Source: Spongospora subterranea f. sp. subterranea
Taxonomy: Eukaryota
Direction: 5' to 3'
NCBI GenBank assembly: GCA_049724395.1
Contig: JAUGWO010000001.1
Span: 62,001-126,000 of the forward strand
DNA length: 64,000 nt
Position 1 is the first letter of the stretch, and every line of letters begins with the position of its first letter. Shown here in pieces: positions 4,624 through 56,812 of this stretch. The translations under genes were made by a program, and so were the position numbers. The notes under the pieces were generated by a model, which saw only the letters and a list, made by a program, of their open reading frames with translations, was not told where the DNA came from and did no database searches.

Positions 4624-5202
4624 TCAGTAATTATCATCGTCATCGTGATCATGTTCACTAATAACAACAACATGATCAGAAATTCAAATGAAGCAAGGCG
4701 ACACGAGTTTTTACTCTGAGTCGTGATCAAAACCTTCTTCATGCCCATCATCGTGATGATCATGCGAATGATGTTCGGCCATATGATTGATCGAATGGCC
4801 CTGTGGTTCGACTCAGTCAAACACAATGATCGCCGCAAACCACTCACATGATTCTCAGAATGGGAATCTTTTCCGCTGACCGTGGCAGTAATGAACGCTA
4901 TAGTTATCAGCTTTACCTTATCTTTGGCCAATCCCTACAGAAAGTATCGGGGCACTGTGTTGTTAAACCACTAACTTGTCATTACCTCCATTACGTGATC
5001 CCCTTCGTCCAAGTGGTATTCGTCCTCTGTATGGCAAATCAGGGCCAGATACTAATCAGCTCATTTGATACGTCGAAATACCTTCGTCATGGCCATCGCC
5101 GTGATCGTCCACAACATTCTGTGAGCCATGATTGCCGCCACCATTGGCTAGTGTGGTCCCGATAATAATACACGATAATAGTAATATAATAAGTCGGGAC
5201 AT
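4624..5202 (-). CDS. Secreted His/Asp-rich protein A (family 1), 5 exons
   Basis: Spliced by eye over 4 GT-AG introns: MSRLIILLLSCIIIGTTLA|NGGGNHGSQNVVDDHGDGHDEEDEYHLDEGDHVMEGLAKDKVKLITIAFITATVSGKDSHSENHGHSINHMAEHHSHDHHDDGHEEGFDHDSDEHDHDDDDNY*. Core matches the 20393-21124 gene. Confidence 0.85.
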
Positions 5203-5257
5203 TATTGCCAACTGACAATAATCTTGACGTAACTGTCAAAAGGAGCTAAAGAAAAGT

Positions 5258-5264
5258 TGACTCA
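5258..5264. promoter_or_regulatory. TGACTCA (AP-1/GCN4-type) site upstream of gene A
   Basis: gtTGACTCAt, 56 bp upstream of ATG 5202; recurs upstream of all ten His-rich genes. Confidence 0.65.
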
Positions 5265-6217
5265 TGGTGTATGGTGGGTATTGAACTGGCTAAAACCAGG
5301 TAGAGGCTGCGATAAGAAATCGGATGGATAAGGCATCGTGATGTCCAGCAATGAGCGTTCGCCAACAGGTTGCATATTCAGTTCGATATCGGGGTCAACT
5401 TGTATTGAGTTGTTGAATTCCTGCGTCATTATCATATTAAACGACAAATCATTGCCCCTTTGGTTAGAAGTCGTCCTGTTAGCTATTGCATTAGCAATGA
5501 CGAACGACTCGGAAGGGCATGAGTAAAAAGCAATGGAACGATTAGCAGCGTCGACATCGGTGGCATCATCCTTGATTGGTGAAGCAGAGGGTGAAAACGG
5601 TTGTTGTGAAAGAGTCACATCTAACTCGTCCACCTGTGCGATATTCCCTTGAGATTCCTGCACACCCCATTCGTGCTGTAAGTTTCGAACACAGGCGTTT
5701 GGGTTGCTATGTGCATCGTGTTTGAGATGGTTGGGCGTGGCGGCAACGATTAATCGGCTTGGATTTTCGACCGATGATATGGCCTTTGGAGTGGCTTTAA
5801 CGATCCACTGCGGTTGCGGAGCCAACTTGCGTTCTTATCCAAAAGACTTGAATAAAAATTCGAATCAAAAATGTGAAAGAACATATACCTGCCCCAATGA
5901 TTCGGCCAAGATGTTGGTCGAAACCCTTCCCATGGAACACCTTGTAATTTTCTGTTAAATTATTGTAAAACGGAATGAGTTTTGCGAACCTGCTGCCACG
6001 TTGTATCTTGATCCAAAGCCAAAGAGGATCGAGCCGTAATTGCCAGACATGCCTCGGCGTATTTCAACTTGAATGCAGATGCGTAATCGGACGAGGATCG
6101 TGTGGCACCCATATTTCTCGGCTGCTCACAGCAACTCCAAGTGCTTGGAGAATCGAAACAGGAAGAACGTTTCCTGTACAAACCACGTATACACTGTATA
6201 CTAGGGAATGCGACCAC
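5262..6217 (-). CDS. Hypothetical protein (probably 3 exons; 5' end uncertain next to the transposon)
   Basis: 187-aa terminal ORF plus upstream ORF segments separated by intron-like stretches; no family recognised. Confidence 0.4.
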
Positions 6218-6350
6218 TCGGATTTTTTTCGCGCATTTTTTTTTTTGAAAAATCCCTGAGGGTTGGCCGTAAACTACCTAGGGAATTCGAGAGACGCACA
6301 CGCACAATTCCGGAAAAAGTTTGACCGTAAACTATGGGCGGCTTGAAAAA

Positions 6351-6411
6351 GCAGGGCATATTCGCAGGGCATTTTCAAAACTTGCGCGGATGCCCTGCGA
6401 ATATGCCCTGC
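6351..6411. repeat. Perfect 22-bp inverted repeat (hairpin)
   Basis: gcagggcatattcgcagggcat (6351-6372) and atgccctgcgaatatgccctgc (6390-6411). Confidence 0.85.
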
Positions 6412-6415
6412 GAAT

Positions 6416-8810
6416 TACAGTGAGACGTTTTTTTTCAAAATGTAGCAGACCCCCGGATTTTTCCATAATAAAACCTCTCTATAAGAAGTACAAACTCTGT
6501 TAAGTACGCAAAGTACAGTGAAACCTCCATATAAGGTACAGCCCATAAAAGGTACAGTTCCATATATGGTACGTTTTTTTTTCAAAATAGCAAACCCCCG
6601 GATTTTCCATAATAAAACCTCTCTATAAAAAGTACAAACTCTGTTAAGTACGCAAAGTACACCTTGGTTGGTCACGGAGTTACCTACGCTGTTCTATATA
6701 TGGTCCATTTTTTTCTGTACACCACATTCGGATCGCCCAATAAATAGTGGAATATTGATGAACCGACGCCTGCATTAAGTCGAGCAGGGTAAGCACATTC
6801 GCGACAAAGCTTTCGAGCTTCGGATAATGCCAGCATCAAGCGGCTGTAGAACGGAGATGAGATTGGGTGGAAAAAAAACAGTCACGACACGTGGGCGCGA
6901 CCCCGTGTGCGCAGCCCCTTGCGCGGCCGCGCTCGAATTCCGCATTAGGTACACACCACTCCATAAGGTACAAAATCAATCGATTTTGGAGCAAATTGGG
7001 TGTACCTTATATGGAGGTTTCACTGTACACCCTTGGTTGGCCACGGAGTTACCTACGCTGCTCTATATATGGTCCGTTTGAATCTTTCAAAATGTCGAAC
7101 GCGGTGTCTGAAACAAAAAAACGTAAGTCGATCTGAGCACAAAGCTTGCCATCCTCAAGTACATTGACGATGGGCACAGCATCCGAGCAACAGCTGAGAA
7201 GTTCTCTCTATCCAAAGGAACTGTTGAAGCAGAGCAGGAATTCGTTGCTTCGAGCGCTCTCCAAAGCCAGAATAGTCCGGCAGAGCGACATTAACCTTTT
7301 TTATGGAGATGGTTTTCAACAGCAAAGAGCGCGTGGTTATCCGATAAGTGGTCCCATTCTGCATCAACGATTTTTTAGCCCAAAAATGGAAACAGAGGAA
7401 CAATGTGCGGTCGTACAAGGTATGTGGAGAATCGGGAAATGTAGATCTCGTTCGCGCGGAACATTGGAAAACGTCATTAGCGGCAACGATGGCAGGATAT
7501 GATCTCAAGAACGTATTAAATATGGACGAGACAGGTTTCTTCTTCCGAGCCTTACCAGACTCAACATTGAACCATGTCTCTCAATCACGTAAGGGGGGAA
7601 AGCAAGGCAAAGACAGAATAACTTTGGCTTTTACTTGCTCAGCTATGGGCGAGAAACTCCCCCTTTGGATAATTGGAAAGTCCAAAAATCCTCGCGCTTT
7701 CAGGGGTGTCGATATGAGCAAATTCAAAGCAACGTATTCAAACAGTGCAAAAGCCTGGATGACTAATCCGCTGTTCAATATTTATTTACAGGAGCTGGAC
7801 GAGATCTTTAAACGACAAGGCCCAAAGGTTCTACTCTTTTTGGATAATGCCCCTGTCCATATCGTCGACGAAGCCACAAATCTGACAAATATCGAGCTTC
7901 GCTTTTTTCCACCCAATCTCACCTCCGTTCTACAGCCGCTTGATGCTGGCATTATCCGAAACTTGAAAGCTTTGTCGCGAAAGTTCGAAGTGCTTACCCT
8001 GCTCGAATTAATGCAGGACACGTCGGTTCGTGTATCAGATCTTGCCAAAACCTCGAAGGAGACTATCCAAAAATGTTTCGCCAAATGTGGATTTGTAATC
8101 CCGACGGTTCATCACCCCAGAAGTTTTGGAGCAAGAAGAGGAACTTGCTTCTTTGGCTGAAAAGGTCGGTATTGACAGATTCCTAATTGTTGTTGAAGAA
8201 AACTTACCAGAATGCGAGATTGAAGAAGAAACAACCCTCATTGTACAGTTAGTTGATGAATTTAATAATGCTTGCAGTGATGACGAAGTGGAGGAAATTG
8301 CAAATGATATCGAAGAAACTGAACCCCAACAACCAAGAGTGATTTCAACTGTCCAGGCAAAAGAAATGCCCACGGATCTGATCGCCTTCGCAAAAGCCAA
8401 ATCGCTGTTCAAAGAGGAGATGAATTTGAAGGTGTTGAAGGCTACAATCCATTCTCTTTATCTTTCAAGTCTTAGACAGCCAGCAATTCATCAGTATTTT
8501 CAACAATTCCTCCTTTTCTGAACACCAGATTCGGATCGAACCAATGGCCGCGCCCAATGAATAGTGGAATATCGATGAACCGACGTGTCCTGCATTAAGT
8601 CGAGCAGGGTAAGCACTTCGAACTTTCGCGACAAAGCTTTCAAGCTTCGGATAATGCCAGCATCAAGCGGCTGTAGAACGGAGGTGAGATTGGGTGGAAA
8701 AAAGCGACCAGTCACGGCACGTGGGCGCGGCCCCATGTGCGCAGCCCTTGCGCGGCCTCGCATTCCGCATCAGGTAAACACCACTCCATAAGGTGCAAAA
8801 TAAATCGACT
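6416..8810 (+). mobile_element. Degenerate pogo/Tigger-type DNA transposon (CENP-B-like HTH plus DDE_1 transposase, frameshifted)
   Basis: Transposase motifs NMDETGFFFR, AWMT, LLFLDNAPVH, FFPPNLTSVLQPLDAGII in 7348-8160. Broken N-terminus from ATG 7092 and acidic C-terminal tail to 8521. Ends inferred from homology with the nested copy. Confidence 0.88.
6516..7025 (+). mobile_element. Non-autonomous ~510-bp deletion derivative of the same pogo element, nested in it
   Basis: 25-bp TIRs CAGTGAAACCTCCATATAAGGTACA (6516-6540; reverse complement at 7001-7025), TA on both sides. Interior is the 5' end plus the 3' end of the host element. Confidence 0.9.
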
Positions 8811-10102: not shown

Positions 10103-10967
10103 TTAATGGTCTCCTTCCAGTAAGAACGAAATCAAGTTTCTGCAAACAAACACGTATCAGCGAAATGTCTCTTGACATCAGAAATGAGCAGAATCGATCA
10201 TGGGATGAACAACATAAACATATTTTTGGTGATTTACCCCATCGTCATGCCCATGATGGTGTCCATCGTGGCCATGTCCGAAATCGTAGCCTTCGTGGCC
10301 ATGTCCACCGCCATGACCGCCGTGTTCGCCCCCGCCATGCCCATGGATCCCCTCGTGCGCTTCCCCATGCAAATGATGATGATTATCGTGATCTGCAACT
10401 GTTCGTCAACACACACAACAGAATTTCCGACAACAAAACCCAGGAACATTTGTCTCATAACACTGCCGATTCATTTCGTGAAATGTTTTGTGTTTCTCAA
10501 CAAATGATCTCCTCACAAAAAACAAAAACAATATTGTTCGGTGAATATCAACTCATATCGCCAACAACAAACGAATCGCATTTACCATGATCGTCATGAT
10601 GGTCATCTTCGTGTTCATAAGTGTCCTCGTGAGCCAGCTCATGTGAGTCCGCTAAAGTGGCAAATGGTTGTCAGAACAATCTGACTCCTGAATTTGTGCA
10701 AAGCGATCGAGCCTTACAATGAACGTCGGACGCGGTCATGAAAGCTGTTAATGTCGCCTGCGTCACCGTATTTGATTTATCTTTGCCAGCGTGGTCAAGG
10801 TGCTCATCATCGTGATCGTGGTCCTCTTCATCGTGGTGGTCGTGGTGATCAACGTGATCGTGTTCGTGGTGGTGATCGTGATCGTCATGGTGGTCCTCGT
10901 GATCGCTGGCGTGCGTCAGTGCCAGTAATATCGACGAGCAAACTATAAAAACGATTAAACCCCTCAT
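10103..10967 (-). CDS. Secreted His/Asp/Gly-rich protein B (family 1), multi-exon; last exon uncertain
   Basis: MRGLIVFIVCSSILLALTHA|SDHEDHHDDHDHHHEH...HLDHAGKDKSNTVTQATLTAFMTASDVH, intron, SDSHELAHEDTYEHEDDHHDDH, intron, DHDNHHHLHGEAHEGIHGHGGGEHGGHGGGHGHEG... Confidence 0.85.
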
Positions 10968-11067
10968 AAAATTATTGTCGAGACCGTTGCCGGTTTGTTA
11001 TCACAATATCGAATGGCATCATTCGGTCTGGTAGATTCGAAACTACTCATCACGTTTGGACCAGAGT

Positions 11068-11074
11068 TGACTCA
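11068..11074. promoter_or_regulatory. TGACTCA site upstream of gene B
   Basis: agtTGACTCAact, 101 bp upstream of ATG 10967; a second TGACTCA at 11404-11410. Confidence 0.65.
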
Positions 11075-11571
11075 ACTTATCGCCATATTCCATGAATCAC
11101 CGTCGTCATCGCCACTTAAAAAATCCACAATCCATCCACCGTCCAGGGTTTTCACCCGTTTTATCCTCATAATTCAGACCCGAAAGTCGCAAACGTGTTT
11201 TAGTCGGGGAGGAATGTTCGAAGTCAAACATAATATCTTCCCCTAAAATCACATCAATAAACTACATAAACGACCCGCATCTCGACATAATCGGCGACGA
11301 AATTTTTGCTAGATGAGAAACGACCGTGAGACATTGCGCCATCGGATTGATTATGTGAAAAAAATGTTGTCGCAACTGTGTTTTGGGAGAGCTGAAAGTT
11401 CGATGACTCATATTTCACAATACTCCACATCGCTGGTTTCACAATGTCGAATTGAATCGAGTTCTGACCGGGATTTTTAAGTGCAAACAATTGATTGACA
11501 AGAAGCGGCGGCGGCGACGGATATAAGTTGTGTGGCGGCGAACGACCGGACTGAATGGGATGAGATCCTTT

Positions 11572-17479: not shown

Positions 17480-18439
17480 TCACGGTCTCGAAATTCTCGG
17501 GACGGATGCGGGTCGCAAGAGCGGCGGTGCCGTTCCAGCCGGGATCGGCATTGACCTGAGCCCGGCCGACGGCCTTGGCCCATCCGGGTTTGATGCCGAG
17601 CTGTACCCGTAAGGCACAGGCACATCACATTCCTCATCCTGAACAATCTCAACCGTTTGCCGTTGCTGAACGATCGCTGGAACCGGTGGGGCCGGCGTCG
17701 GCACGATGACCGGGCCGTTGGTGACGGGTGGAGCCGTTTCCTTCGATGGGCAGGCTCCAAGCGTGGCGCCCTTCTCTAGGAACTCACCCAGCGACTCAAC
17801 AGGCACCTTGATGTTGGTCAACACGTGGGGAAGGCAAATAGGAACGTGCACTGCCTTGGCGTCCGATGTGGTCGGTGCTGGTGTGGTCGGTGATGGTGTA
17901 ATCGTCGCCTTCTTCTTTGGTGCTTTAGTTGCCCTCTGAGGATTCTTGGATTTCCGAGGCGATTTCGTGTTGTTCTGAGGCAGATGGACGTCCGGAAGCG
18001 GAGTCGTGTTATTTTGGGGCAGCGGGGCGTCCGGTGGCGTTTTCGTGTCGTTGCGAATCTCGACGCTGGTCGGCGGCGCCTTTGTCAGGTTCAGAGACGT
18101 CGGAGGCGGCGAGGTTGGTGTATCAGGAGGCGGTGACGTTGTAGCCGGCGGGCAACTGCCTAATTTCCCACCTTGTTTCAAGTACGCTTCGACCAGGTCG
18201 GCTTCGACCTCGACAGTTTGCTGATCTGATGTGCACAAAGTCTGGGTGGATTTCGCCGTTGCTGGTGTCGTGCCACCGCCGCCGCCTTTCTTCACCCCCG
18301 TCCCCGGTCCGACATTATCGCCATTCCCTTGGCCGATATTGACGATGATGTCGTTCCCGTACCCTTTGTTGGATTGCGCCATCGACGCGTAACTGGCCAG
18401 GAGGACGATGCACGTCATGAGAACAGCATTTCGATCCAT
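17480..18439 (-). CDS. Secreted Pro/Thr-rich protein with two copies of a small two-Cys domain
   Basis: Signal peptide MDRNAVLMTCIVLLASYASMA. Repeats LCTSDQQTVEVEADLVEAYLKQGGKLGSCP and ICLPHVLTNIKVPVESLGEFLEKGATLGACP separated by a P/T linker. Confidence 0.8.
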   Translation of the reverse strand: MDRNAVLMTCIVLLASYASMAQSNKGYGNDIIVNIGQGNGDNVGPGTGVKKGGGGGTTPATAKSTQTLCTSDQQTVEVEADLVEAYLKQGGKLGSCPPATTSPPPDTPTSPPPTSLNLTKAPPTSVEIRNDTKTPPDAPLPQNNTTPLPDVHLPQNNTKSPRKSKNPQRATKAPKKKATITPSPTTPAPTTSDAKAVHVPICLPHVLTNIKVPVESLGEFLEKGATLGACPSKETAPPVTNGPVIVPTPAPPVPAIVQQRQTVEIVQDEECDVPVPYGYSSASNPDGPRPSAGLRSMPIPAGTAPPLLRPASVPRISRP

Positions 18440-18494: not shown

Positions 18495-18542
18495 TGAGTC
18501 AATCATCATGAAATTATCTACAAAACTGCCAAACTTGACTCA
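18495..18542. promoter_or_regulatory. Two TGA(C/G)TCA sites upstream of the Pro/Thr-rich secreted gene
   Basis: TGAGTCA 18495-18501 and TGACTCA 18536-18542. Confidence 0.6.
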
Positions 18543-18721: not shown

Positions 18722-19051
18722 TCAGTGATAGTAGTCATTGTATGGGAGATGGCGATCGTGATCCAATCCGCCATGGGCCATATCGACCATCTCATCGTGA
18801 CTCAAATGGTCGCGATCATGGCCATGATGATACCCGTGGTGATGATCGCCCTCGTCGTCGCCGTCGTCGTTATGATAGGGGACCGGGACGTGATCCTGGA
18901 CCGAGATCTCGACCTCGATCTCGTGCTCCTTTCCCTCCCGATGGGCCAGGTCCTCCTCGTTCCTGTGCGCGTCCCGGAAATCGTCTTCCGACGCGATCGC
19001 CACGGCCATCGCCATCGCCATCAGCACCACGATCATCACTGTTTCGTTCAT
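18722..19051 (-). CDS. Secreted His/Asp-rich protein C (singleton), intronless
   Basis: MNETVMIVVLMAMAMAVAIA|SEDDFRDAH...EHEIEVEISVQDHVPVPYH...HHHGYHHGHDRDH...YYH*; TGACTCA at 19185-19191. Confidence 0.82.
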   Translation of the reverse strand: MNETVMIVVLMAMAMAVAIASEDDFRDAHRNEEDLAHREGKEHEIEVEISVQDHVPVPYHNDDGDDEGDHHHGYHHGHDRDHLSHDEMVDMAHGGLDHDRHLPYNDYYH

Positions 19052-19688
19052 GGAGCTCCTCGTTTTGAGTTGTTTGAAATGTTGTGTGGAATGGGGCGAG
19101 TTTACCAATCTGACCCTGAACCCGACACCCACCCGGTTCCGGTTGGCTCAACATATCGGGTTCGTTCCGATAATGCTCCAACCGTGACTCATCGTTCGTG
19201 GCAGTTCGATGATCGTCCTGATCGATACTGTATTCCCTGGGCCCATCCGCCCACACGATTTCATTGTCGCCAACTCTGATAATACAGTCGACTCGACCGG
19301 GCCACTCCTCTCAACAAAACGCAATTGCAGTGCGACTTTTGTCACGATCAATCGCTCTTTCGTTGGCCAGTTTGCGGTGCCTATCTTCCTGTCGCCAACA
19401 ATATGTGTCGCCGAATAGCATCGCTCAATCCGGACCCGCTCCCTGGAATCAAAAACAGGAAATCGCCGATGTCAATGGGCCCTGCGCAGGCGGGCGTCAA
19501 CTGACCAATGGGCAATCGATTGATCAGTTGACCCCGAATATGATGATCGCGATGACAGCGAGACGAGCGGTTGACGGCTGACGGGAACCCCAATCAAATT
19601 CGGCACAGATTGGGGGACGTCTTCCCCCCCGATCGGCGACTCGGCGAATAATCCATGGCAGAAACATTCGGCGAAATCGATCGACGAG

Positions 19689-20392: not shown

Positions 20393-21124
20393 TCAATCAT
20401 CGTGATGACCGTGATGATGATCCTCTTCATCGTCCAGATAGTGGGACAGGTGCTTGAACGCCTCGTCGTGCCCCTCGACATCGTCCCGATCGAAGTCGTC
20501 GGCGATGTGGTGCTCCTGTTCGTGGTTCTCGGAATCGTGATGGATCTCGGAATGGGAGTCCTTCCCGCTGACGACGGCGTTCAGATAGGCGATCGTCTTC
20601 ACCTTCGCCGTGTCCTTCACCTTCCCTTCGAGCTCGTGCACCCCGTCGTCCTTGTGGTAATCGTCATTATCGTACAGCTCGCGATCGGTATTGTCGCGCT
20701 CGAAATGGGATTCGTGTCCGCCGTGCGTTCCCTCATCGCCGTGATGATCGCCATGATGACCACCGCCGCCGCCGCCGCCGCCGTGTTTCCTGAACCCATG
20801 GAAATGGCGCCCTGGGCCATGGTAATCCCCATCATCGCCACCGTCATCATCATCGTCACCGTCATCGTCATGATGATGGTGATTGTCGAAATGATCGTCG
20901 TCGTCGTCGAATATGCCATGGCCGCCCTCGTAGTCGTCGCCGAACCCGTCGTAGAAATCCGCGAATTCGTCGCCCTCCTCATCGAACGCATTGTGTCGTG
21001 GGTGATGATGACGCCCTCCAGCGCCATGGTTCATCATATGGTGTTGGCCGAATCGCCCCCCGTTACGAAACGCCTCAGACAATCCGATGACCAGCGCCAT
21101 CATCACGATCGCCCTCCATATCAT
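20393..21124 (-). CDS. Secreted His/Asp/Gly-rich protein D (family 1), intronless, 243 aa
   Basis: Signal peptide MIWRAIVMMALVIGLSEA; core HELEGKVKDTAKVKTIAYLNAVVSGKDSHSEIHH; TGACTCA at 21216-21222. Confidence 0.9.
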   Translation of the reverse strand: MIWRAIVMMALVIGLSEAFRNGGRFGQHHMMNHGAGGRHHHPRHNAFDEEGDEFADFYDGFGDDYEGGHGIFDDDDDHFDNHHHHDDDGDDDDDGGDDGDYHGPGRHFHGFRKHGGGGGGGGHHGDHHGDEGTHGGHESHFERDNTDRELYDNDDYHKDDGVHELEGKVKDTAKVKTIAYLNAVVSGKDSHSEIHHDSENHEQEHHIADDFDRDDVEGHDEAFKHLSHYLDDEEDHHHGHHDD

Positions 21125-21516
21125 TTGGGTGATCGATGGGCGTTATTAAATATATAAGTGACGAGATGGGTGTAAAGTGTCCGATCACGACAGATATGTG
21201 TTGATTCATTGTCAGTGACTCAACATTGTCTGGCTGACACCCTCCTTATACACCCAATCCCAATTCCATTCGTCACTATCGTATATCCGATGTTCATTTA
21301 GGTTCATTTTTGTCCCGTTCCGCATCGTCAGCGTTTTAAACCCCAGTCAATCGCCTTGATCGATATCGATGTTGTACCAGTTCATGCCGCGTCAACAAAT
21401 GTAGATTTGGGGTCAATCGCAGTGGAGAATCAATATACATACACTAGAGTGTAGTATGCCAACGGCAGTACCCCAGTCCACGTTACACGGTGGGGCCACC
21501 CAGAGAGCCCAACGAG

Positions 21517-23988: not shown

Positions 23989-24085
23989 TGGTAATCGAGC
24001 TCTCTCCTTTCCAGGCACAACCCCCACAGAACTACAACATTATAAAACAATCAAACTCCTTGACAAGTTCATCACATGTGTCAGA

Positions 24086-24747: not shown

Positions 24748-25140
24748 ATCGCGACCCAGTCTAGCGCCACCTCGGTGTCCGATATCGCCAGTTCGCCACG
24801 TGACTCGACTGTGGGTGGTGACGAGGGGGGTCCCATAAATCGCCATCTGTTCCAGTCATTATCATTATCGAGGGATGGCGCTATCCATTGTTTGGACCAG
24901 TATCGCCCATCGACTCAACATGACGATAGCGGTATTTGATGTCCCTTTGGTTATTGCAGCCCAGATTTATCAGAGGATAACGATATTTGGGGTCCGATCG
25001 CCCCTTCTGAATTGTGATATAGCGATGATAGCGATGGTCCAGTGATTCATTGAACAGGATCATGGTCATTGCGGGATAGATTAGAACGAGGTGGCGGTTT
25101 ATCAGTCTGTGGCCGGGACCATAAAGGGATTCGCAGGTGT

Positions 25141-25678: not shown

Positions 25679-26319
25679 TCACGCGTAGTGCCCGCTAGAA
25701 CATCACACAGGTCAATACACACAGATTGATCACGCTCGTCGCCTTACTGTTTGGCATCTGTAGCGCCGTCGTAGTGGTTCTCGCTAGGAAACAAAAACGG
25801 ACGTTAGTGGTTCTGTGTGTGTGTGGGATTCAATGGGGAGTTTCACGTACTGGTCACCTTCGGCGTCATCGTGGTATTCGTGCTCGGAATCTGTCGCCAA
25901 CACGGTGAATACGTCAGGTTGAATATGGGGTGAACCGGTGATGACAAACCTTCGTGATCGTCGTGCTCTTCACCGTCCTACAAACAGAGAAATCAGTGAC
26001 GGAACACAACGACGACGACGACGACGGGCGAAGAACATACGTGATGGAATCCATGGCTGTGGGCGTGACCGTGGTGGGCATGATCGTGATGGGCGTGGGC
26101 ATCGCTATGAATATCGTGACTGAACCAGACGAACGGTGATTAGATCCCCGAGATAACGACCCATGAATGGGCGGCAACAAATATCACGAACTGGTCGATA
26201 TGGCCATCACCATGGTGCACGTGCATCCTGGTGTCACCGGCGTCGACGATCATGACGAGGACGATGGCCAGACCGATCACGATCAGACAGGTACGGGGGG
26301 CGACGACACAGATCGACAT
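25679..26319 (-). CDS. Secreted His/Asp-rich protein F (family 2), 6 exons
   Basis: Spliced by eye: MSICVVAPRTCLIVIGLAIVLVMIVDA|GDTRMHVHHGDGHIDHHDIHSDAHAHHDHAHHGHAHSHGFHHDGEEHDDHEDSEHEYHDDAEGDHENHYDGATDAKHGHYA*. All five introns GT-AG with consistent phase; not shown intact in the ORF track. Confidence 0.82.
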
Positions 26320-26568
26320 CGTTTTCTTTGACGGGGGGAGAGTTCCAGAGAAGGAAAACAGACGGTCGCTGGATCTGGGTGGAAATGATTCTGAACAATC
26401 GCCCGACGACGAATCTGGTTTGGATTCGTGAATCTGCTGTTTCCGGGGCGTGATTCAACGCGGTCGCCAACGGCCCCAAGGTGAGTCAACTGGGCGTTGC
26501 TGTTCGATTGGGATCTCTGGGAAATCCCAGGGTTAATGACGGGCGTGACAGTCAGAAGTATTAATATT
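26320..26568. promoter_or_regulatory. Shared bidirectional promoter of genes F and G
   Basis: 249-bp head-to-head interval with TGAGTCA (26482-26488) and variant TGATTCA (26451-26457). Confidence 0.65.
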
Positions 26569-27234
26569 ATGTCGGGATCGGGAGCTATCGCCATCGCGCT
26601 GGTCGTAATGATGGGATTGGTGGGGGATATCGACGCCGGCGACACCAAGATGACGGTGTCCCATGGTGATGGACACATCGATCAGTAAGGACAACAACGG
26701 GCGATCGTCGCTCGTGTTGAGGGGTTTCTCGGCCGACCGTTCTGAATGGGGTTGGGCGTTTTAGTGAGGATATCGAGGGGCACGATCAGGAGGTCGATCG
26801 GGTTGAACATCATCATGGTGTTGCTCGTAGCCATGGATATCGTCGTGATCACGATCATGGTATGGGGTTCTGCTGTGTTGACGGTTCTATGGGCAAAACT
26901 CAGATCATGTGATTGTGTTGACAGATGAGGTGGAGTTATTCGATGACCAAACAGGTCTGGTGAAATACGAAGGTTTCGTGGTCAATGTTGTTCTGATCGG
27001 TTTGTGTTGTAGATGGAGAACAGTAAGTAGTCGGGCTCGGGGAATCGGCGCCACAATTGTTGATCTGGTTGGGTCAGTCACGATCACGATTACGAACACG
27101 ATGATGACGGTGATGATGATGATGACGATGATTACGAGGATGACGATGATGAGGACGATGATCATCACCACCATGATCTTCATCGTGACGATGATCATCA
27201 CCACGATGTCCACGAACTGCATGATCATATCTGA
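26569..27234 (+). CDS. Secreted His/Asp-rich protein G (family 2), 5 exons including a 10-nt micro-exon
   Basis: MSGSGAIAIALVVMMGLVGDIDA|GDTKMTVSHGDGHIDHEDIEGHDQEVDRVEHHHG...DGEHHDHDYEHDDDGDDDDDDDYEDDDDEDDDHHHHDLHRDDDHHHDVHELHDHI*. Confidence 0.82.
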
Positions 27235-27863: not shown

Positions 27864-28235
27864 TTAAAATGAGGGATGGAAGCGACGCGCTCGATCAGCT
27901 TGGAATTCGCGGAACTCTCGCAGCTCGTCTTCGTCTACGAAGGGTTCGACGTGATCGTGCGCGTGATGGGACGGGAGATCGTCGCCCGAGTGCCAGTCTA
28001 AATCCCCATTGCGATGCGGGAACTCGTGGTGCCGTTGCCAATCGCCCACGCCGAGCAGATCGTGGTGCTGGTCGTCGTGGCCCTCGCCGGGGAAATCGCG
28101 CAACGCGTACACGCCATGGTTGTCGTTGTCGACGTGTCCGTCACCATGATCGACCCAGATCAGGGTGTCACCGGCGTGTGCGATCCCGCTCAGCACGATC
28201 GTGAAGATGAACAGGGCGTCAAGCCTTCCTCGCAT
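27864..28235 (-). CDS. Secreted His/Asp-rich protein H (family 2), intronless
   Basis: MRGRLDALFIFTIVLSGIAHA|GDTLIWVDHGDGHVDNDNHG...; TGACTCA at 28413-28419. Confidence 0.85.
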   Translation of the reverse strand: MRGRLDALFIFTIVLSGIAHAGDTLIWVDHGDGHVDNDNHGVYALRDFPGEGHDDQHHDLLGVGDWQRHHEFPHRNGDLDWHSGDDLPSHHAHDHVEPFVDEDELREFREFQADRARRFHPSF

Positions 28236-28752
28236 TCAAACAGAATCAAACGTATCAACGGAAAATATGTCGGGGGGTGTTGTGGTATTCCAATAAAATA
28301 GTGTTGTGAGGCCTAGTTGAGATGGGTTAGAGTGGGAGTCAATCGCATCAATCCCACATAAATCCGAGTGACGTTGACGTCAACGATCAGAGATCTTCTT
28401 GAGATCAGGCCATGACTCAACTCTAATCGCGTTGACCGACGCAGAGAATTCCAGGAGTCAACACTTATGTGGGATTTGTCAAGACCTAAATGTGGAAAAA
28501 TCTATTGAACGGCCCACGAGGGTTTGTTTGTCGGCGACGTTCTTCAACGAAAGCAATGAAACTGATATCGCCAACATTCGAATCACACTGAGATCAAGCA
28601 GATTTCCTTTCTTGAAACAATTTATTGAATGAATCTTTTCGATGGAATGAAGATAATCTGCCAATACAAATTTCAAAAACGAAAACACAAGGTTGTTGGG
28701 CGATTTTACAGTACAATGATATCGAGTAGATGAAATATATACAAGCGGTGGC

Positions 28753-39586: not shown

Positions 39587-40796
39587 TTAAGCCCATCGGG
39601 CCAGTAATGCCATTGCTGCAGCTCCGGCATACAGCGCTAGCATATTGACTACCTTGAAGTTTCTGGTCATCAATCGGAACGCTTTATTATGGTTAATCTG
39701 TTTACGCATCAGCAAACACAATACGCCAATCCATTTGAATTCCTGTACCTCGACGGAAATAAGCTCCGTATATGTGTTATACATCAAAATTCCTGCTCTG
39801 TGCAGGAGTTTCAACCAATCGCCGTTAAATCACAAACGCTATTTAGAGCACTTACGAAAGTGAGTCGAAAATTCCTTGCACAATGATGACTGTAGATGAG
39901 TTTCCATTGTAGACGCTGTGGACCCCGATTCCAATCGCGATACCGACAGGCGTCGTTAACGGGTACATCATGCCCATGAAACCGAACTTGACGATCGAAC
40001 CCTGGCTGATGTTTGAGATCAATGCACCCAGTGCTAATCCTTCGAATAGCTGGTGGAATGCCATAGCCACAAGCAGTGTCATGAAACCGTTGAAACTGGA
40101 CGTCACCCCCAAAGTCAGGCCGATGGCAAGGGAATGAAATAAGATTCCAGCTTCTAGAATTACAAGCGATAAGAATTTTGCGTCTTCATGAAAATGTCCC
40201 TCGAGTTCGACGTCCTGCCCATTGTGTATGGCCGAAGGCGGCGGCAGGTTATTGACTGCGTTATTCAGCACCATGTCATGCTCAATGTGGTGCCCATGAT
40301 GTCCATGCCCATACGAGAACAGCTCGATCAACTGAACGAGGAACGATGCAGCGAGGGCGAAGACTCCAACGAACGCTGGCCCATATTCCGTCCAGACGCC
40401 ATCCAGACACGGGTTAGAAAATTGCTCAAACGCATCCGGCAAAAGGTGGCACCACCCCGTTGCCGCAATAACGCCAATACCGAACATTTTAAACACCTGA
40501 AGCAATGAATATTTATTTCAAAAAAAAACGACTCGATGTTGACTTACTTGAATGACCTTTTGAAAAAACGGTCTGGAAGTTGTGCCAAGCGTCAACGTTG
40601 TAAAGATTCCGATACCGGAGACCACAAGAAGGATGAAAACGGAACCGACATGCCATGCAACTGAATATTCATCAATAGGTGTCGCAGAACAGTCGATGGC
40701 CGGCGAAAGCGTGTCAGGGCTTTGTCCAAAGACAGTCGAGAAAAGAACCAACGAGGAAACGACCGCAAATAGGAGATATTTGCTTGGTGTCGCCAT
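39587..40796 (-). CDS. ZIP-family (ZRT/IRT-like) zinc/iron transporter
   Basis: FKMFGIGVIAATGWCHLLPDAF, His-rich loop HGHHGHH, LEAGILFHSLAIGLTLG, FHQLFEGLALG, TTPVGIAIGI, AGILMYNTYTEL. Confidence 0.93.
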
Positions 40797-41598: not shown

Positions 41599-42207
41599 TT
41601 AATGAAGCCTGAACATGCCATCATTGGGGTGATTCCAAGCATTCCAGTCACTGAAATCGTCACGAGGTAGATCATGATGAGCGGGCACTCGTTCTGCATC
41701 GAAGTCACCATAACCGTGATGGTTTCCATGATGGTCTCCATGATGGTCTCCATGATGGTCTCCATGATGATTGTCATGAATTGGTAAGTGATGACCATCA
41801 TGCTCATGGACTCCACCAAGGTGGAACGGCTCGTGCTCGCCGTGATGCTCGTCTTCGAAGCCGCCGTGCCCATGTTCATGGCCTTCATAGCCATGGTCTG
41901 CGTGTCTGGCATGCGTGTCCGCGTCTCTATGGCGATGTTGGTCGTCGTTTTCCCCAGCGATGTCATGGCGACGAACGTGGACATGTACATCAAGGCCTTG
42001 CGATTCAGGGTCTACGTAACCATGACCATCGTGATGATCGTAATCCTCGTGGAGTCCATGGTGGCCATCATGAACGCCAAGGGGAACATCATGGTAGTTT
42101 CTTGAGTGTCCACCATGTTCGTTAAACAGCCCTTCGTGGTCGTGACCATAATCAGCATTGGCAAAAGTGGCCACCGCCAGCATGGCAATAATGAAAGCCT
42201 TATTCAT
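41599..42207 (-). CDS. Secreted His/Asp/Gly-rich protein I (singleton), intronless, 202 aa
   Basis: MNKAFIIAMLAVATFANA|DYGHDHEG...; (HHGD)n repeats; GLDVHVHVRRHD strand; TGACTCA at 42342-42348 and 42473-42479. Confidence 0.88.
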   Translation of the reverse strand: MNKAFIIAMLAVATFANADYGHDHEGLFNEHGGHSRNYHDVPLGVHDGHHGLHEDYDHHDGHGYVDPESQGLDVHVHVRRHDIAGENDDQHRHRDADTHARHADHGYEGHEHGHGGFEDEHHGEHEPFHLGGVHEHDGHHLPIHDNHHGDHHGDHHGDHHGNHHGYGDFDAERVPAHHDLPRDDFSDWNAWNHPNDGMFRLH

Positions 42208-42504
42208 TTTCCAAGACCTGCCAGAACCAGTATATAGATGTAGGATTGATAATATATTACGAGTTATGGAGGAACTTATTCGGTATGTTAAGAAGAATCC
42301 ATTGAGAGTTGATTCACGCCCTCATTGAAATCGAACCGACTTGACTCAGCGGGTGAAATTGCCTGTCTGATTTCAATACATCACATCAAGAACTTTTGGC
42401 GTTGTGAAAGGCATCATATGTCAAGCTTAGTTCATCGAGAGTTGAATCACGGCCTCTCGTTTCGCACCGGCTTGACTCAGCATTTGAACTACCCGTTTGA
42501 GGTT

Positions 42505-43443
42505 TCATACGTCACATCGACTAATTGAACGTTGTAACAGTCGGAGGTCTACGATTGCACTCGGAGGGCGCCCATCATCGGTATTATTATACATTACGTA
42601 GACGTTCTTGCCAGATCGCTTCCACTCAACAACTTGCTTCGCCAGTTTCTCCATACACTGTTCACCATAAGATCCAACATACTGGCCATTGGATCCATGT
42701 AGTCGTAGATAATAGCCCCAGTCACAACATGGCTGATAGCCTTCGAGTGTAGGGTTCCAACCGTCTTTCAAATCGCCTACCCACATCTTTACGTTTTTGA
42801 TGTGTATCGCCGCGAAGCAAAAATTACACGACCTCATCGCATCATAAATTTCTTGGCAATACCAAGACGCATGTCTGAATTCAAAGACATAGCGACCATC
42901 TCTGGGCAGAATGGCTCTGAGAGCATATAGCTTGTCAACTGAGTACGTGAGCTTGGGCGGAAGCTGAAACAAAATGGGCCCAAGATGATCACCGAGTTGT
43001 TTACAGCCTTGCTCATAGAAATAATGCCACCTTTCGGCGAAATTGTCATCGACGTTGAGTTGCCTCCAATGGGTGAAGTACTGGTTAGCTTTGACCACGT
43101 ACGTGAATGAAGGTCGCGGCGACGAATCATGGCACCATTTTTTCCAGGTTGATAGTTTCGGGATACGATAAAAAGTCGAGTTCAATTCGACGGAATCGAA
43201 CTCAGCAGAATAGAATTTGAAGAGGTCCACACCTCGAGGATAAAACACGCCCTTTTTCCAATGATCATAGCAATACCCACTGGTTCCCAAATAAAATTCC
43301 TTTTGATGACAAACTTTCCGTTTCTTCTGGAACTGTATTGGCTCTTCATCGGAACTATATGATGCTGTGACACTAATATTCTTCTTAGCCAGTGCTTTGG
43401 ACGAAACTGTAGAACCCGACATGATGGCCGCGTGCTTATGCAT
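42505..43443 (-). CDS. DUF72 (YecE-like) protein, intronless
   Basis: YLGTSGYCYDHWK...FYP, VELNSTFYRIP, VKANQYFTH, LGPILFQLPP, FEFRHASW, YYLRLHG, YVMYNN. Confidence 0.9.
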   Translation of the reverse strand: MHKHAAIMSGSTVSSKALAKKNISVTASYSSDEEPIQFQKKRKVCHQKEFYLGTSGYCYDHWKKGVFYPRGVDLFKFYSAEFDSVELNSTFYRIPKLSTWKKWCHDSSPRPSFTYVVKANQYFTHWRQLNVDDNFAERWHYFYEQGCKQLGDHLGPILFQLPPKLTYSVDKLYALRAILPRDGRYVFEFRHASWYCQEIYDAMRSCNFCFAAIHIKNVKMWVGDLKDGWNPTLEGYQPCCDWGYYLRLHGSNGQYVGSYGEQCMEKLAKQVVEWKRSGKNVYVMYNNTDDGRPPSAIVDLRLLQRSISRCDV

Positions 43444-43646: not shown

Positions 43647-43885
43647 GTATCATAAGATGACTAGGCACGTCCTCTTCTCAGTATTATAACAGCACCGATT
43701 CAGTGATGATCTCATTCAAATGATAGACCAGTCGTGGGAGTATCATAAATGACTAGGCATGTCTTGTTGACAGTATCGTAACAGCACCGATTCAGTGATG
43801 ATCTCATTTAAATGATATGCCAGTTGTAGGAGTATCATAATGACTAGGCATGTCCTATTCACAGTATTGGAACAGCACTGATGCA
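43647..43885. repeat. ~92-bp degenerate tandem repeat, ~2.6 copies
   Basis: gtatcata(a)atgactaggca...aacagcac(c/t)gat unit starting near 43647, 43740 and 43832. Confidence 0.8.
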
Positions 43886-52509: not shown

Positions 52510-53277
52510 TAGATACACCGACACTTCACAATCGCACTCTGTAGATACACCACACTGCACACACACACTCGTAGGGACACACTGGTACACCGAACTGCAC
52601 ACACAACCGATGGGACACACTCAATTCATCGGTCAAACACACCAAACAATCGTGGTAGTGACAATATAGGGACACTTGGTTAGATACACCGCACAGCAAC
52701 ACACTGGTACTGTACACACTTACAGCGAACTGCACAGTGCACACGCAACCAATGGACCACACTCAATTCATCGGTCAAACACACCAAACAATCGTGGTAG
52801 GGACACTGTAGGGACACTTGGTTAGATACACCGCACAGCAACACACTGGTACTGTACACACTTACAGCGAACTGCACAGTGCACACGCAACCAATGGACC
52901 ACACTCAATTCATCGGTCAAACACACCAAACAATCGTGGTAGGGACACTGTAGGGACACTTGGTTAGATACACCGCACAGCAACACACTGGTACTGTACA
53001 CACTTACAGCGAACTGCACAGTGCACACGCAACCAATGGACCACACTCAATTCATCGGTCAAACACACCAAACAATCGTGGTAGGGACACTGTAGGAGTA
53101 GGGACACTCGGTTAGATACACCGCACAGCAACACACACACTGGTACTGTACACACTTACAGCGAACTGCACAGTGCACACGCAACCAATGGACCACACTC
53201 AATTCATCGGTCAAACACACCACACAATCGTGGTAGGAGCACAGTAGGGACACTCGGTATGTACACCGCACTGCACA
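52510..53277. repeat. 142-bp tandem repeat (CA-rich), ~5 copies
   Basis: Identical units give identical ORF translations offset by 142 bp (starts 52762, 52904, 53046). Confidence 0.92.
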
Positions 53278-54438
53278 TAACGACAGCACATATTCAGAAT
53301 GTTTTGAGTTCTCTTTAGTTGCTGTCATCGTTGGGTAGGACGGCTTCAGGACAAACAAGAATTCCTTCGAATCCTTCGTTGATTGGTGATCAAACAACGG
53401 AATAACGATAGGAATGGGTTTGCTCGTGAACTTGCTAGTTGGAGCAGTTCGGGGGATGGATTAATGTCGCTAAAGCTTCTGAAAGGAACCGAAACCTTTT
53501 AAGCTCCCGTTCTAACATTTCTGATGATTAATAAGTGCATTTTACAACAATCAGATTTTCCGAAGATACTTCTCATCTTTAGAAGATTGTGAAGACGGCG
53601 TCACCCGACCAACTCAATTCGCCAAAATTGCAATTTTTTTACGCCAAACACCTCCACTTGCCCAAGAGGTTTTAGGGCGCTTAAGACAGGAGGAGTCCAA
53701 ATTCGTTTCGAATTGTGTACTGACCTAGACGAACTGTAATCCCTTTCTGAAAACAAAGCCGCAATTGCCAGGTTCCGACAACTGGATGCCCGACAGCTCT
53801 TGTCGTGCTATTTACCCAAAAAACCGATAGAATAACAACAACGATTCGCTAAACTGATCAGCACGTTGATGAGGTTATCTGTTCAAGGAAATCGCTGACA
53901 CCTTGAACACGGCCCATTGAAACCGCCATCGCAGGAAAAATAATAAAAATCCTTAGATCAAATCCACCAACGGCTTCGCGATACAATTCATCGGATTCTC
54001 GTTGTTGAAGCCTCTCCCTAATTTGCCGTCTCGGCCTCGTCTGGCGCCCGTTGATTCTCATTCAATGCCCACTGCGATATATTACTAATCACTGATCAAT
54101 ACTTCATTTACCTTGGAAATCAGCAGAAATTTGTTGATATTCAGCTGCGATCATACGTCCTACTGGATTCCCCAATCCCTTTTCTTCTGAACAGTGCAAC
54201 GCGCGTCTACCACGATTTCTATCAGCAGCGTCAAAGCATGGCGATTTGACAAAACATATTTCTATTGTTTGTCTTGAATGGGTAGGCTCCAGGAATTCAA
54301 CAATGCAATTGCTTAAAGGGCTTTGCTGTCGGGAGTTTCCAGCGATTTGCGTATCCCGGCCGGGTCGACAACGAATCTGTTTTTCCAAAAAGAAGGGTAA
54401 TATTTTATTGTTTTTGGGTGAACATCTGAGGGGGCCGA

Positions 54439-55161
54439 TTAATGATGTGTTCCAGGGAGCCAGTTCGCCTGGTGCCCATCGTGGTCGTGATCGTGATGCA
54501 GCATCCGTTCCTCGTCGGCCATCATGCGCATCTCGCTTCCGTGCATGTGCTCGCTGCCCTGAATGGCGTGCTGATTCCCGTGCTGATCCTCCATCATGTT
54601 CCCGAACCTTCGGTACGGCGCCTGTTGGTGAAGGTCGTGATGGTGATGCCCATGGTGGTAATCGTCATCGCCGCCAAACAGACCGAAATGCCCTCCCAGG
54701 CCGTTCTCCTCGTCTTCGATTCCATCCCACTCGGACTGGTGAAGACGCCGCCCAAGATCGTGGCGCTCGTGATGATCACCATCGGCGTCGACGTCGCTGT
54801 TGACCCCACGTCGGTACCCAAGCATGGCCTCATTTCCTTGAAGATGATCGTGTTCGGCTTCGGCGTCGGTCTCGTGAGCGTTATCGTGCATGTGCGAATA
54901 CGAATCGGAGTGATGGTCCTTAGCGCCCAACGTGGCGGTGAGCTGGGCTTGCGTCTGTGTCGTCGACTTGTCCTTCCCTTTATGGTCCAGATTGCTGCCG
55001 AGATGGTCGGTGAGCTGCTCGGCGTCGTGCATATCGATATGATGATGGCCACGTACGGCTTCGGCGTCTTTATGGTTCAGCATCTGTTCTTTATGGTCGG
55101 CGTGGGCCAGGCCGATCGCCAGGGCGATGGACAGGGCCAGCACTATTGTACGGGGAATCAT
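54439..55161 (-). CDS. Secreted His-rich protein J (family 1), intronless, 240 aa
   Basis: MIPRTIVLALSIALAIGLAHA|DHKEQ...; core NLDHKGKDKSTTQTQAQLTATLGAKDHHSDSYSHMHDNAHE; TATA-like tatataaa near 55243; TGACTCA 55301-55307. Confidence 0.9.
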   Translation of the reverse strand: MIPRTIVLALSIALAIGLAHADHKEQMLNHKDAEAVRGHHHIDMHDAEQLTDHLGSNLDHKGKDKSTTQTQAQLTATLGAKDHHSDSYSHMHDNAHETDAEAEHDHLQGNEAMLGYRRGVNSDVDADGDHHERHDLGRRLHQSEWDGIEDEENGLGGHFGLFGGDDDYHHGHHHHDLHQQAPYRRFGNMMEDQHGNQHAIQGSEHMHGSEMRMMADEERMLHHDHDHDGHQANWLPGTHH

Positions 55162-56171
55162 GATCGGGTTTCAGAGGAGGTGGTTTCAAAAACGCCAGAA
55201 ATCGCACCAGCAAATAATACGCTTTTGATATTGATTCGATAATATATAAAATGAGATAAGGACGGGGATCAGGTCTCAGCTGGCAAAGGAAATCAGAACG
55301 TGACTCACACTCCGATCGCCCCGGGTGAATCACCACAGCTCTTTGCTCACAAGGGGGGCCAGTCCCTCCCAAGGGCCAGGGGTTCATCCAATCGGGGCCC
55401 TCCGTGTTTTGAGACATCACGCGTTGGCCAATCGGAAGCGGGACCTGACCTTAACCCCCATCCTTATCGGCGAGTTGACCAGGCGAGGCAGATCGTTAAT
55501 GAGGATAGGGCCGAACGTTTACATCCCCAGATTCAGTGATCGTTTTGCGTTGTCCATTGGCACTTGCGATTCCGTTGCCCAGCCAAAGTAATATGTTTGG
55601 TTAGCTGGCTGCGTATCGACATCGCCGTTCACGAAGCAAGGAGACGCAACAGCGCTTCGTAAAATTGCTATCAGCGTTTCAACGCCTCACAAGTTTCATT
55701 GGCATTTCGTCAAAATGAACTTGATTCTGGTTTTGTGCCACAATGATTTTCCCGGCGACGCTGATCGCTTCGGGTACTCAATAAAACACTGTTAACTGGC
55801 CAATATCATCGATCGTTGAATTTTCAAACACAGCGTGAATAGGAATTATTTGTTCGCGTTAATCGTTTGTTTGTATTGTTCGTTTCGTGGTATTTGACCA
55901 ATTCCGCAACCTATCGTGTTGATGTGCTCGGCGCCGTCCTGAGATGGTCCCAATCCGCCAAGATTGCTGACAGATATCATCCAGCGATGGTCCGGAATCT
56001 GATTTGGGACCGTTGGCGATCATGACCAAACGTCAGTTGCGTCAATGTCCCAAAGCGGAATGGGAAGATGAGTCATCGTCAAACTAACAACGCGTTGCCA
56101 TTTCCGGGATCTTCTGGATCGGATCGGCCATTGTTGATATTGGGATTTTTGCTGGGCAACGTTTGGCGAAC

Positions 56172-56812
56172 ATGATGTCTATTCGAATATTGGTGGTATT
56201 CGTTGCCGTTGCGTCTTTGGCAATCGCTGAAGATCACGCCGGTCAAGCTGTCGAGGGAGATCACGTCAACGCCAACAACGGCCATCAACATATTGACACG
56301 CGCGACGCCGACCAGTTGGCCGAGAAATCGGGGAAGGTTCTGGACCATAAGGGAACCGATAAATCCAACACGGTGACGCACGCGCAGCTGTCGGCCGTTC
56401 TTGGCGCCAAAGACCACCACGAGGACTCGTACTCCCACATACACGACAGCGCTCACGAGCTGGACACAATGGGCGAAGGGGATCATCTGCAGGGAGACGC
56501 CGCCATGGCCGGAATGCGACAAGGAACCGATGTCCACGACGATCACGACTACGATTCGCATCACGGCAACCACGTAAACCCCATCGGTGCCGTTGACAAA
56601 TGGGTTCGCGTTTTCTGATTTGTGTGTGTGTTCGGTTCCAGGGGCGAGATCATCACGCCATGTTCGGGGACGATCCGCATTCGGAAGCGCTGTCCCATGG
56701 GCACGGGTATGACGACCTGTATCTGGGCCAGTTCGATCACGTGGGCATGATGCACCACGACGACCATCATGGTCATGGACATGGACATGGCGCTATGAGG
56801 CATCATTTCTGA
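56172..56812 (+). CDS. Secreted His-rich protein K (family 1), 2 exons, divergent paralogue of J
   Basis: MMSIRILVVFVAVASLAIA|EDHAGQ...VLDHKGTDKSNTVTHAQLSAVLGAKDHHEDSYSHIHDSAHE...; intron gtaaac...ttccag; TGAGTCA 56069-56075. Confidence 0.88.

Follow-up and report, generated by a model that had tools for sequence, protein, structure and literature searches.

A dispersed set of genes for predicted secreted histidine- and aspartate-rich proteins with a common upstream motif in Spongospora subterranea

Described histidine-rich and low-complexity secreted proteins

The jaw protein Nvjp-1 of Nereis virens is glycine (Gly)-rich and cysteine (Cys)-poor with more than 20% histidine (His), and its zinc-His cross-linking hardens a piercing tool. 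Insect chorion and cuticle clusters and the Dictyostelium spore-coat genes are co-regulated genes for secreted low-complexity structural proteins, some of them arranged as divergent pairs on one cis-element, and the Plasmodium proteins HRP2 and KAHRP, simple His-Ala repeats or knob scaffolds, are exported into red cells. For the squid beak, HBP-1 and HBP-2 have been proposed to permeate a chitin scaffold and harden it, with His as pH switch (PMC6884462), and Pra1 of Candida albicans is a single conserved protein, zinc- and pH-regulated, whose gene has an upstream region in common with ZRT1 in several fungi (PMC3386192). Here we compare with these systems a dispersed cluster of ten small genes (A–D and F–K) for predicted secreted, His- and aspartate (Asp)-rich proteins, together with an eleventh gene (E), located in a stretch of 64,000 nucleotides (nt) from Spongospora subterranea f. 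sp. subterranea (GCA_049724395.1, contig JAUGWO010000001.1, positions 62,001 to 126,000), which is referred to as the window and whose first letter is position 1 for all coordinates. An earlier note on this DNA had proposed the ten genes as a candidate extracellular metal-binding or structural system. Statements on published papers refer to the passages and table rows available from each of them.

The ten proteins resemble HBP-1 and HBP-2 as disordered, His/Gly-rich extracellular proteins (PMC6884462), the features matched here being disorder (predicted local distance difference test, pLDDT, of 52.5 for the N-terminal part of J), a His/Gly-rich composition, and secretion as judged by a hydrophobicity heuristic. 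However, HBP phase separation requires GHGxY repeats (PMC6884462), of which the ten cluster proteins contain none, and the latter are far more Asp-rich, possess conserved cores of their own, and showed no sequence relationship to the squid proteins. With Nvjp-1 they share the high-His, Gly-rich, Cys-poor composition, but Nvjp-1 is an animal protein with proven zinc binding, whereas the S. subterranea locus appears to hold a multi-gene set under one motif. No homology to Nvjp-1 emerged from database searches (three matches for J among 1.84 billion representatives), which included no direct pairwise comparison. The Pra1-Zrt1 arrangement, in which the gene of a secreted His-containing protein adjoins a ZIP-family transporter gene (PMC3386192), has a parallel in the window, where a ZIP-family zinc/iron transporter gene (5' part at 39852..40796, minus strand; Pfam Zip, E 6.8e-30) lies 803 nt downstream of I in tandem on the same strand. 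Here, however, ten low-complexity genes are present, the tandem ZIP gene lacks their upstream motif (no TGA(G/C)TCA within 300 nt), and scanning the His-rich open reading frames (ORFs) and exons against Pfam and NCBIfam gave no match at E <= 0.001, Pra1 included. The divergent pair F and G with its common short cis-element recalls the chorion, cuticle, and spore-coat genes, which differ in sequence and lineage, the present genes being interleaved with housekeeping genes. HRP2 and KAHRP, too, are His-rich proteins exported by a protist that lives as a parasite inside cells, but no motif common to them and the cluster was found. Overall, the cluster would seem to work most like the His-rich animal biomaterial proteins, yet it fails their sequence tests.

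Gene set and upstream motif

The starts and stops of all ten genes agree with those in the earlier note, and its grouping into two motif-defined families and two singletons was upheld. Family 1 comprises A (4624..5202; 122 amino acids, aa), B (10103..10967; 168 aa, 29% His), D (20393..21124; 243 aa, forming an A/D subtype with A), and J (54439..55161; 240 aa) on the minus strand and the J paralogue K (56172..56812; about 190 aa) on the plus strand. Family 2 consists of F (25679..26319, minus strand; 108 aa), G (26569..27234, plus strand; 135 aa, 31% Asp), and H (27864..28235, minus strand; 123 aa), with F and G in divergent orientation across a 249-nt spacer. The singletons C (18722..19051; 109 aa) and I (41599..42207; 202 aa, with HHGD repeats) are both on the minus strand. 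The genes do not form a tandem array and are interleaved, as had been observed before, with housekeeping genes (yippee, RME-8/GRV2, thioesterase at 24.3 kb, HRD3/Sel1, TPK, ZIP, and EDR2 neighbours). An eleventh gene, E (17480..18439, minus strand), likely belongs with the set and had been overlooked, as had the upstream motif; it encodes a predicted secreted Pro/Thr-rich protein of 319 aa with two C-x(20-21)-GxxLGxC repeats, zero matches in Pfam, NCBIfam, and PDB, and an AlphaFold model of pLDDT 43.0. Scanned in six frames for His/acid-rich stretches, the window yielded the ten genes and their off-frame or antisense shadows, and a signal-plus-His/Asp heuristic recovered nine of the ten (C was missed) and no other gene.

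All ten genes carry the sequence TGAGTCA 62–184 nt 5' of the start codon, a new result. The motif was first spotted by eye as GAGTCAA and then tested. Counting the single site of F and G once, nine of nine independent promoters contain TGAGTCA, sense-oriented in every case, versus none of ten other neighbours within 300 nt (some of whose starts are first-ATG guesses). TGAGTCA tops the ranking of all 7-mers, and its placement has a P of ~6e-9 with all 7-mers allowed for (Fisher 1e-5). The window holds 16 sites, compared with 10.6 +/- 3.1 expected, and 6 of 100 shuffles reach 16; the count is thus unremarkable but the placement is not, because 12 of the 16 sites fall within 300 nt upstream of the eleven genes. 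On the minus strand, TGAGTCA is located at 5258..5264 for A (−62 relative to the start codon), 11068..11074 for B (−107), 19185..19191 for C (−140), 21216..21222 for D (−98), and 55301..55307 for J (−146), and on the plus strand at 56069..56075 for K (−103) and at 26482..26488 for G (−87) and F (−169) in common. H combines TGAGTCA (−184) with TGACGTCA (−147) at 28375..28419, minus strand, E has two TGA(G/C)TCA sites (−62 and −103; 18495..18542), and I has two TGAGTCA sites (−141 and −272; 42342..42479, minus strand), each 30–32 nt from a TGA(A/T)TCA. B, D, F/G, I, and J have this variant, TGA(A/T)TCA, at a distance of 14–32 nt from their main site, and all of the nine other genes compared lack it. 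TGA(G/C)TCA is the AP-1/Gcn4 site of basic leucine zipper (bZIP) factors.

As the earlier note had stated, introns hide several of the genes from the ORF track: A, B, F, G, and K need four, three, five, four, and one introns, respectively. The multi-exon models were built by hand and have open frames with GT..AG introns, except for the third intron of B, whose RNA joint omits one further G relative to a GT..AG intron, probably because of a homopolymer difference in the assembly. Among the joints listed for contigs from public RNA runs, all three introns of B (10652–10717, 10393–10585, and 10140–10238) were found in four of four runs (X1, X5, X8, and X9) and two of the four of G (26685–26764 and 26860–26924) in two of four (X1 and X9); since spliced joints are present, the contigs used include mRNA. 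The remaining two introns of G, whose model includes a 10-nt exon, the five of F, the intron of K (56574–56641), and the exons of A (5202–5082, 5026–4986, 4934–4848, 4800–4715, and 4657–4624) are modelled from sequence. The genes C, D, H, I, and J are intronless. Contigs cover C, D, and E in X1 and X9 and I and J in X2 and X6, whereas K has zero cover in X2 and a depth of ~4.6 in X6; H is matched by an orthologue on a further contig (L001). Contig depths differ strongly between the samples S1 and S2 and are unsuited to ranking genes, X1 and X9 are apparently one data set, and the runs possibly overlap the published tables discussed below, for which reason depths were not taken as separate evidence.

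Three further observations concern these contigs. In X5 and X8, which represent one sample, a long minus-strand contig begins near 11505–11522 and carries an extra intron (10943–11004) that deletes the B start codon and the first eight signal-peptide codons, the other B introns being kept; no in-frame ATG was found upstream, and this isoform may be non-coding or repressive. In X6, a single contig spans a DUF72 gene into I (41740–43303), and the cover of I there may be read-through. The RNA contigs have one base fewer than the window at 10237–10240, 20134, 22346, 22889, 47045, and 48688, which suggests homopolymer errors of the assembly or strain differences.

The composition described in the earlier note, Cys-free His/Asp/Gly-rich chains behind a signal peptide, was also found here, with the leader judged by hydrophobicity only. 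Pooled from residue 27 onward, the mature chains of the ten genes (1380 residues) contain 20.9% His, 18.0% Asp, 11.7% Gly, 7.8% Glu, and no Cys, as compared to 3.4% His in six neighbouring ORFs. Each of the ten has a hydrophobic N-terminal stretch (best 10-residue Kyte-Doolittle mean 2.67–3.56), and the hydrophobicity scan found no later transmembrane-like segment in any of them; the ten proteins are accordingly predicted to be secreted. Their composition suggests that the His/Asp chains may bind metal. Histidine biosynthesis is absent in both Plasmodiophora brassicae and S. subterranea (PMC4471660), which makes a product with 21% His costly and its His likely functional. Of the features of chitin-binding wall proteins (CBM18 and R&R types), the ten proteins show neither a Pfam domain nor an R&R-like pattern, and they have no Cys.

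Sequence families, relatives, and expression

Profiles were built from the family cores, as had been proposed in the earlier note, using J, K, and three outside homologues for family 1 and H and its orthologue on L001 for family 2, and recovered B, A exon 3, G, and F. The family-1 profile matched B with E 2.5e-13 and A exon 3 with E 0.018 (none of 2000 shuffles, 1809 of them scored, was as high). D was marginal (16 of 2000 shuffles as high), but its relationship to A is clear, with a score of 90 against a best of 41 in 5000 shuffles. The family-2 profile matched G (E 3.5e-6) and F (E 7.9e-5), and the members of this family have in common the motif AGDT-x3-V-x-HGDGH(I/V)D directly after the predicted cleavage site. 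The family-1 core, located in J at approximately residues 63–90 (54892..54975, minus strand), spans about 26 residues with a period-2 pattern, one face reading D-S-T-T-A-L-A-(M/L)-A-D-H-D-Y. Across J, K, and the three homologues, 10 of 13 positions are invariant on this face and 2 of 13 on the other. Such alternating one-face conservation is the mark of a long beta-strand with a single packed face, and the pattern would be typical of a polymerising beta-strand; in the absence of a turn, the strand would require partners from other chains. In the AlphaFold model of the J N-terminal part, the core is extended and has the highest pLDDT (67 per block).

The earlier note had recognised neither family, and indeed no Pfam, NCBIfam, or PDB family match was obtained, with nothing above the Pfam/NCBIfam cut-offs for the ORFs, exons, and alignments scanned. 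The best PDB matches (E 0.1 to 0.94) were treated as chance, the NCBIfam likeness of the B His tract to metal-transport proteins is weak, compositional, and far below cut-offs, and a relationship of I to L001 (E 0.023) was discarded as low-complexity likeness only. Word-index searches yielded 0 matches at E <= 1 among 542 candidates for J and, for the family alignment A2, a single match among 2824 that was already in the alignment. In metagenome scans, none of 147 family-1 pattern matches was confirmed, but at least one was among the 599 family-2 pattern matches listed. The ESM Atlas gave no usable match for J or for residues 22–160 of P. brassicae PBTT_08748, and eight of nine ORFs had no identical entry in the collection searched by exact look-up. 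Judged by sequence, the two cores are undescribed families.

The three matches of J in the full-library search were PBTT_08748 and two further proteins. J and PBTT_08748 share 47% identity (E 1.6e-25), distributed by block as 20/42, 18/29, and 34/58 over residues 22–150 (47–62%) and 18/67 beyond. The H orthologue on L001 has its own His-Gly-Asp repeats, and both contain AGDTLIWVDHGDGH(V/I)DN. On this poly(A)-ended contig, the 3' half of an actin coding sequence (1–571) is joined directly to the H orthologue (756–1511), by assembly chimera or as true neighbours; the window has no actin match. Sequence cluster 167 in supplement 8 of PMC12503489 unites PBTT_08748, S. subterranea A0A0H5RWI1, and jg7874 and jg7762 of Polymyxa betae, and is family 1. 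The neighbours PBTT_08747, PBTT_08766, and PBTT_08752 pair with P. betae jg7876, jg7877, and jg7759, and an effector-oriented secretome includes PBTT_08748 (PMC12503489). The orthologues are clustered by gene identifier (ID) in P. brassicae and P. betae as well. Among the 41 consecutive P. brassicae IDs PBTT_08726–08766, 15 are secretome IDs, nine of them called disordered (PMC12503489). This span was picked after the data had been seen, and IDs stand in for positions. With all windows allowed for, its P is ~3e-4 to 2e-3 against a background of 700–800 genes in a P. brassicae total of ~10,500. The conservation of the orthologues contrasts with the majority of secreted proteins, which P. brassicae and S. 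subterranea do not share (PMC4471660). Two accessions that cluster with PBTT_08728, A0A0H5RT21 and A0A0H5QIF8, do appear in the lists of the sporosori proteome (PMC7397026), and part of the P. brassicae run may thus be spore proteins.

No prior description of the families was found in the openly readable literature, where family 1 is represented by one nameless row of PMC12503489, as far as its available parts go. The main-text passages of that paper do not discuss cluster 167, and one of its three 'histidine' passages concerns yeast medium; the main text of PMC7317818 does not contain the word 'histidine', and a TurboID preprint contains no PBTT_08 IDs. The effector clusters on Chr12 and Chr19 of a pangenome preprint might include the present cluster.

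Expression was assessed from Table S3 of PMC8471823, which compares galled roots of a resistant and a susceptible cultivar at six weeks. The window neighbours (yippee and RME-8/GRV2 on the plus strand, and thioesterase, HRD3/Sel1, TPK, ZIP, and EDR2 on the minus strand) appear in the same order among consecutive S. subterranea IDs, and the A0A0H5RWI1 matches sit at the places expected for J and K (PMC8471823), in agreement with this species as the source of the window. Six of seven transcripts assigned in this way are up, with a log2 fold change (log2FC) of 1.86–2.45 at adjusted P < 0.01, four of them at a base mean of 6371–8729, whereas table-wide 837 of 7650 transcripts are up. The transcripts 7713 (base mean 1046, log2FC 2.43) and 7714 (8729, 1.94) together represent two of A, B, and the E/C/D block; 7704 is G (327, 2.45), 7718 most likely H (6480, 1.86), 7724, annotated ZIP, probably includes I (7731, 1.96), 7729 is J (6371, 2.03), and 7711 is K (24, 1.08, not significant). 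Instead of the uncorrelated expression named by the earlier note as evidence against one system, six transcripts assigned by ID order thus rise jointly. Of eight neighbours, six are unchanged (−0.61 to 0.35) and two significantly up (yippee 1.20, GRV2 1.42). Among the rows listed, four of seven chitin synthase transcripts are up by 1.6–2.1, and 18 of 19 flagellar rows are positive, seven significantly (PMC8471823). For F, one of the near-silent IDs 7716–7717 is a possible match. For resting spores, a published table with its own numbering has a ZIP-like row with a count of 81. In the same table, EDR2 has 6749 and yippee 131 (PMC8256667), and EDR2 has 139 in roots (PMC8471823). Relative to EDR2, the cluster is a root-stage set, though it is not silent in spores.

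The window contains some further features. A gene at 23196–23990 (plus strand) encodes a protein, predicted to be secreted, in which two six-cysteine modules (C..TDxxC..xC...PPFCP..LCxC) are combined with a Pro/Thr tail; the modules, which presumably resemble chitin-associated modules, have no Pfam match, TGAGTCA is absent, and contigs join the gene to the yippee transcript. A Pfam 'Hexapep' match at 23.9 kb was rejected as an artefact of the Pro/Thr repeat. The intronless DUF72 gene (42505–43443, minus strand) finds its best outside matches in liverwort (56–57%), followed by scattered eukaryotes and bacteria, and horizontal transfer in either direction is possible. A perfect 30-nt tandem repeat of 4.3 copies lies between the thioesterase gene and F (25139–25267), and tandem arrays of 92 nt and 142 nt occupy 43647–43882 and 52596–53275. 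Transposon remnants (DDE_1, integrase core, and retroviral SH3-like) are found inside and beside the cluster, at 7489–8160 and 58900–62520.

Candidate functions of the gene set

Taken together, we consider it somewhat probable that the eleven genes are one co-regulated set encoding predicted secreted subunits of a structural product that is made during differentiation into walled or flagellate spores and reinforced by His/Asp-metal bonds. A bZIP-type factor acting on the observed TGAGTCA sites would switch on the set together, and the proteins would enter the secretory pathway. To judge from the one-faced pattern, the 26-residue beta-strands of family 1 could then stack into a sheet or fibre, to which family-2 proteins might contribute a short N-terminal hairpin. 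By analogy with the animal proteins, the disordered His/Asp/Gly tails would condense with rising pH, and Zn, Cu, Mn, or Ca would cross-link them and stiffen a chitin-containing structure. That the genes make one stage-specific product, as suggested in the earlier note, gains from the common motif, the joint up-regulation, and the ID-clustered orthologues; of the options given there, a wall, a penetration organelle, and a metal scavenger each keep some probability, and a resting-spore wall is somewhat weakened.

Several findings weigh against a structural product of this kind. The AlphaFold model of the J N-terminal part has low confidence (52.5 overall) and no real strand, and the ten proteins lack GHGxY repeats and, in the Pfam scan, any chitin-binding domain. 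Transcripts were assigned to genes by ID order, expression of K and probably of F is weak despite their motif, and since yippee and GRV2 also rise, the signal may be partly regional or stage-wide. A0A0H5RWI1, the J/K match, has a base mean of 849 in resting spores and is unchanged on germination (PMC8256667). Of the 15 proteins in the P. brassicae run, PBTT_08748 is the only one whose sequence is known here. Finally, neither A0A0H5RWI1 nor A0A0H5RE05, which is one of A, B, E, C, and D, occurs in the sporosori proteome lists (PMC7397026), which bears on the resting-spore wall in particular; insolubility or cross-linking and few trypsin sites could explain this absence.

As to the kind of structure, a wall matrix of the zoosporangium, zoospore cyst, or spore has a considerable chance, if a less than even one. 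The excess in the resistant cultivar and the flagellar genes lean, by an indirect step, towards zoosporangium, zoospore, or cyst over resting spore. The Rohr-Stachel apparatus, in which the Stachel is driven mechanically through the plant wall (PMC4815078, PMC5772912, PMC10953367), has a small chance; the cluster would then supply the material of the projectile, a beta-strand polymer with His/Asp-metal bonds under one bZIP motif. The passages available from these three papers name no Rohr-Stachel component. The great abundance of the transcripts and their failure to rise at germination favour a bulk wall over the Stachel.

Among the other explanations, zincophore-type scavenging survives best, though we regard it as unlikely. 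Once released, the His-rich proteins would capture host zinc, or other metals, and pass them to the adjacent ZIP transporter, for which the Pra1-Zrt1 synteny is a precedent (PMC3386192). The ZIP gene adjoins I at 803 nt on the same strand, the ZIP-annotated transcript is abundant and up (base mean 7731, log2FC 1.96), and the excess in the resistant cultivar could reflect metal withholding. However, the ZIP gene is in tandem rather than divergent and has no motif within 300 nt, and its high count may stem from I merged into the ZIP transcript. Ten diverged paralogues and a Pro/Thr-rich partner would be superfluous for a scavenger, no Pra1-like family was matched in Pfam or NCBIfam, and chitin synthase and flagellar genes move with the set.

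A role as host-directed effectors, which would act at the parasite-host interface as chelators of Cu, Zn, or Mn or as buffers of pH and oxidants, appears rather improbable. The proteins are small, predicted to be secreted, encoded in a cluster, strongly expressed in roots, and up in the resistant cultivar, and PBTT_08748 was placed in an effector-oriented secretome (PMC12503489). In contrast, they are conserved across three genera with different hosts, the period-2 core resembles a self-assembly surface, and they co-vary with differentiation genes. A structural product is a better fit than host-specific effectors because the set is multi-subunit, conserved across genera, and abundantly expressed together with genes for walls and flagella.

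The chance is slight that the proteins, packed into granules of the secretory pathway, supply the host-free zoospore or resting spore with stored histidine, nitrogen, and metal. The inability of the parasites to make histidine, the extreme composition, and the stage-linked high expression would suit a store, but a pure store would not hold one strand face invariant across genera, a soluble store should be easily visible in the sporosori proteome lists from which these proteins are missing, and E carries the motif yet is not His-rich. Least probable of all are unrelated genes of look-alike composition arisen by local duplication with only a general stress-response bZIP site in common: the motif count is near chance, but the positions and orientation of the sites and their pairing with variants are far from random, and the ID clustering recurs in P. 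brassicae and P. betae.

Plasmodiophorids, which cause powdery scab and clubroot and include the beet virus vector Polymyxa, are not culturable. In the literature passages searched, no named protein component of a plasmodiophorid wall matrix or penetration apparatus was found. If the eleven genes encode a structural product, the conserved set with its one motif would offer concrete candidates for the wall or the penetration apparatus, and the motif may expose a developmental regulon. Should the product be the Stachel, the set would provide the first molecular parts list for it, and metal-hardened animal jaws would gain a single-cell counterpart. As conserved, parasite-specific, and highly expressed genes, its members are candidate targets for detection and host-induced silencing, and the two cores are possible new metal-binding biomaterials.

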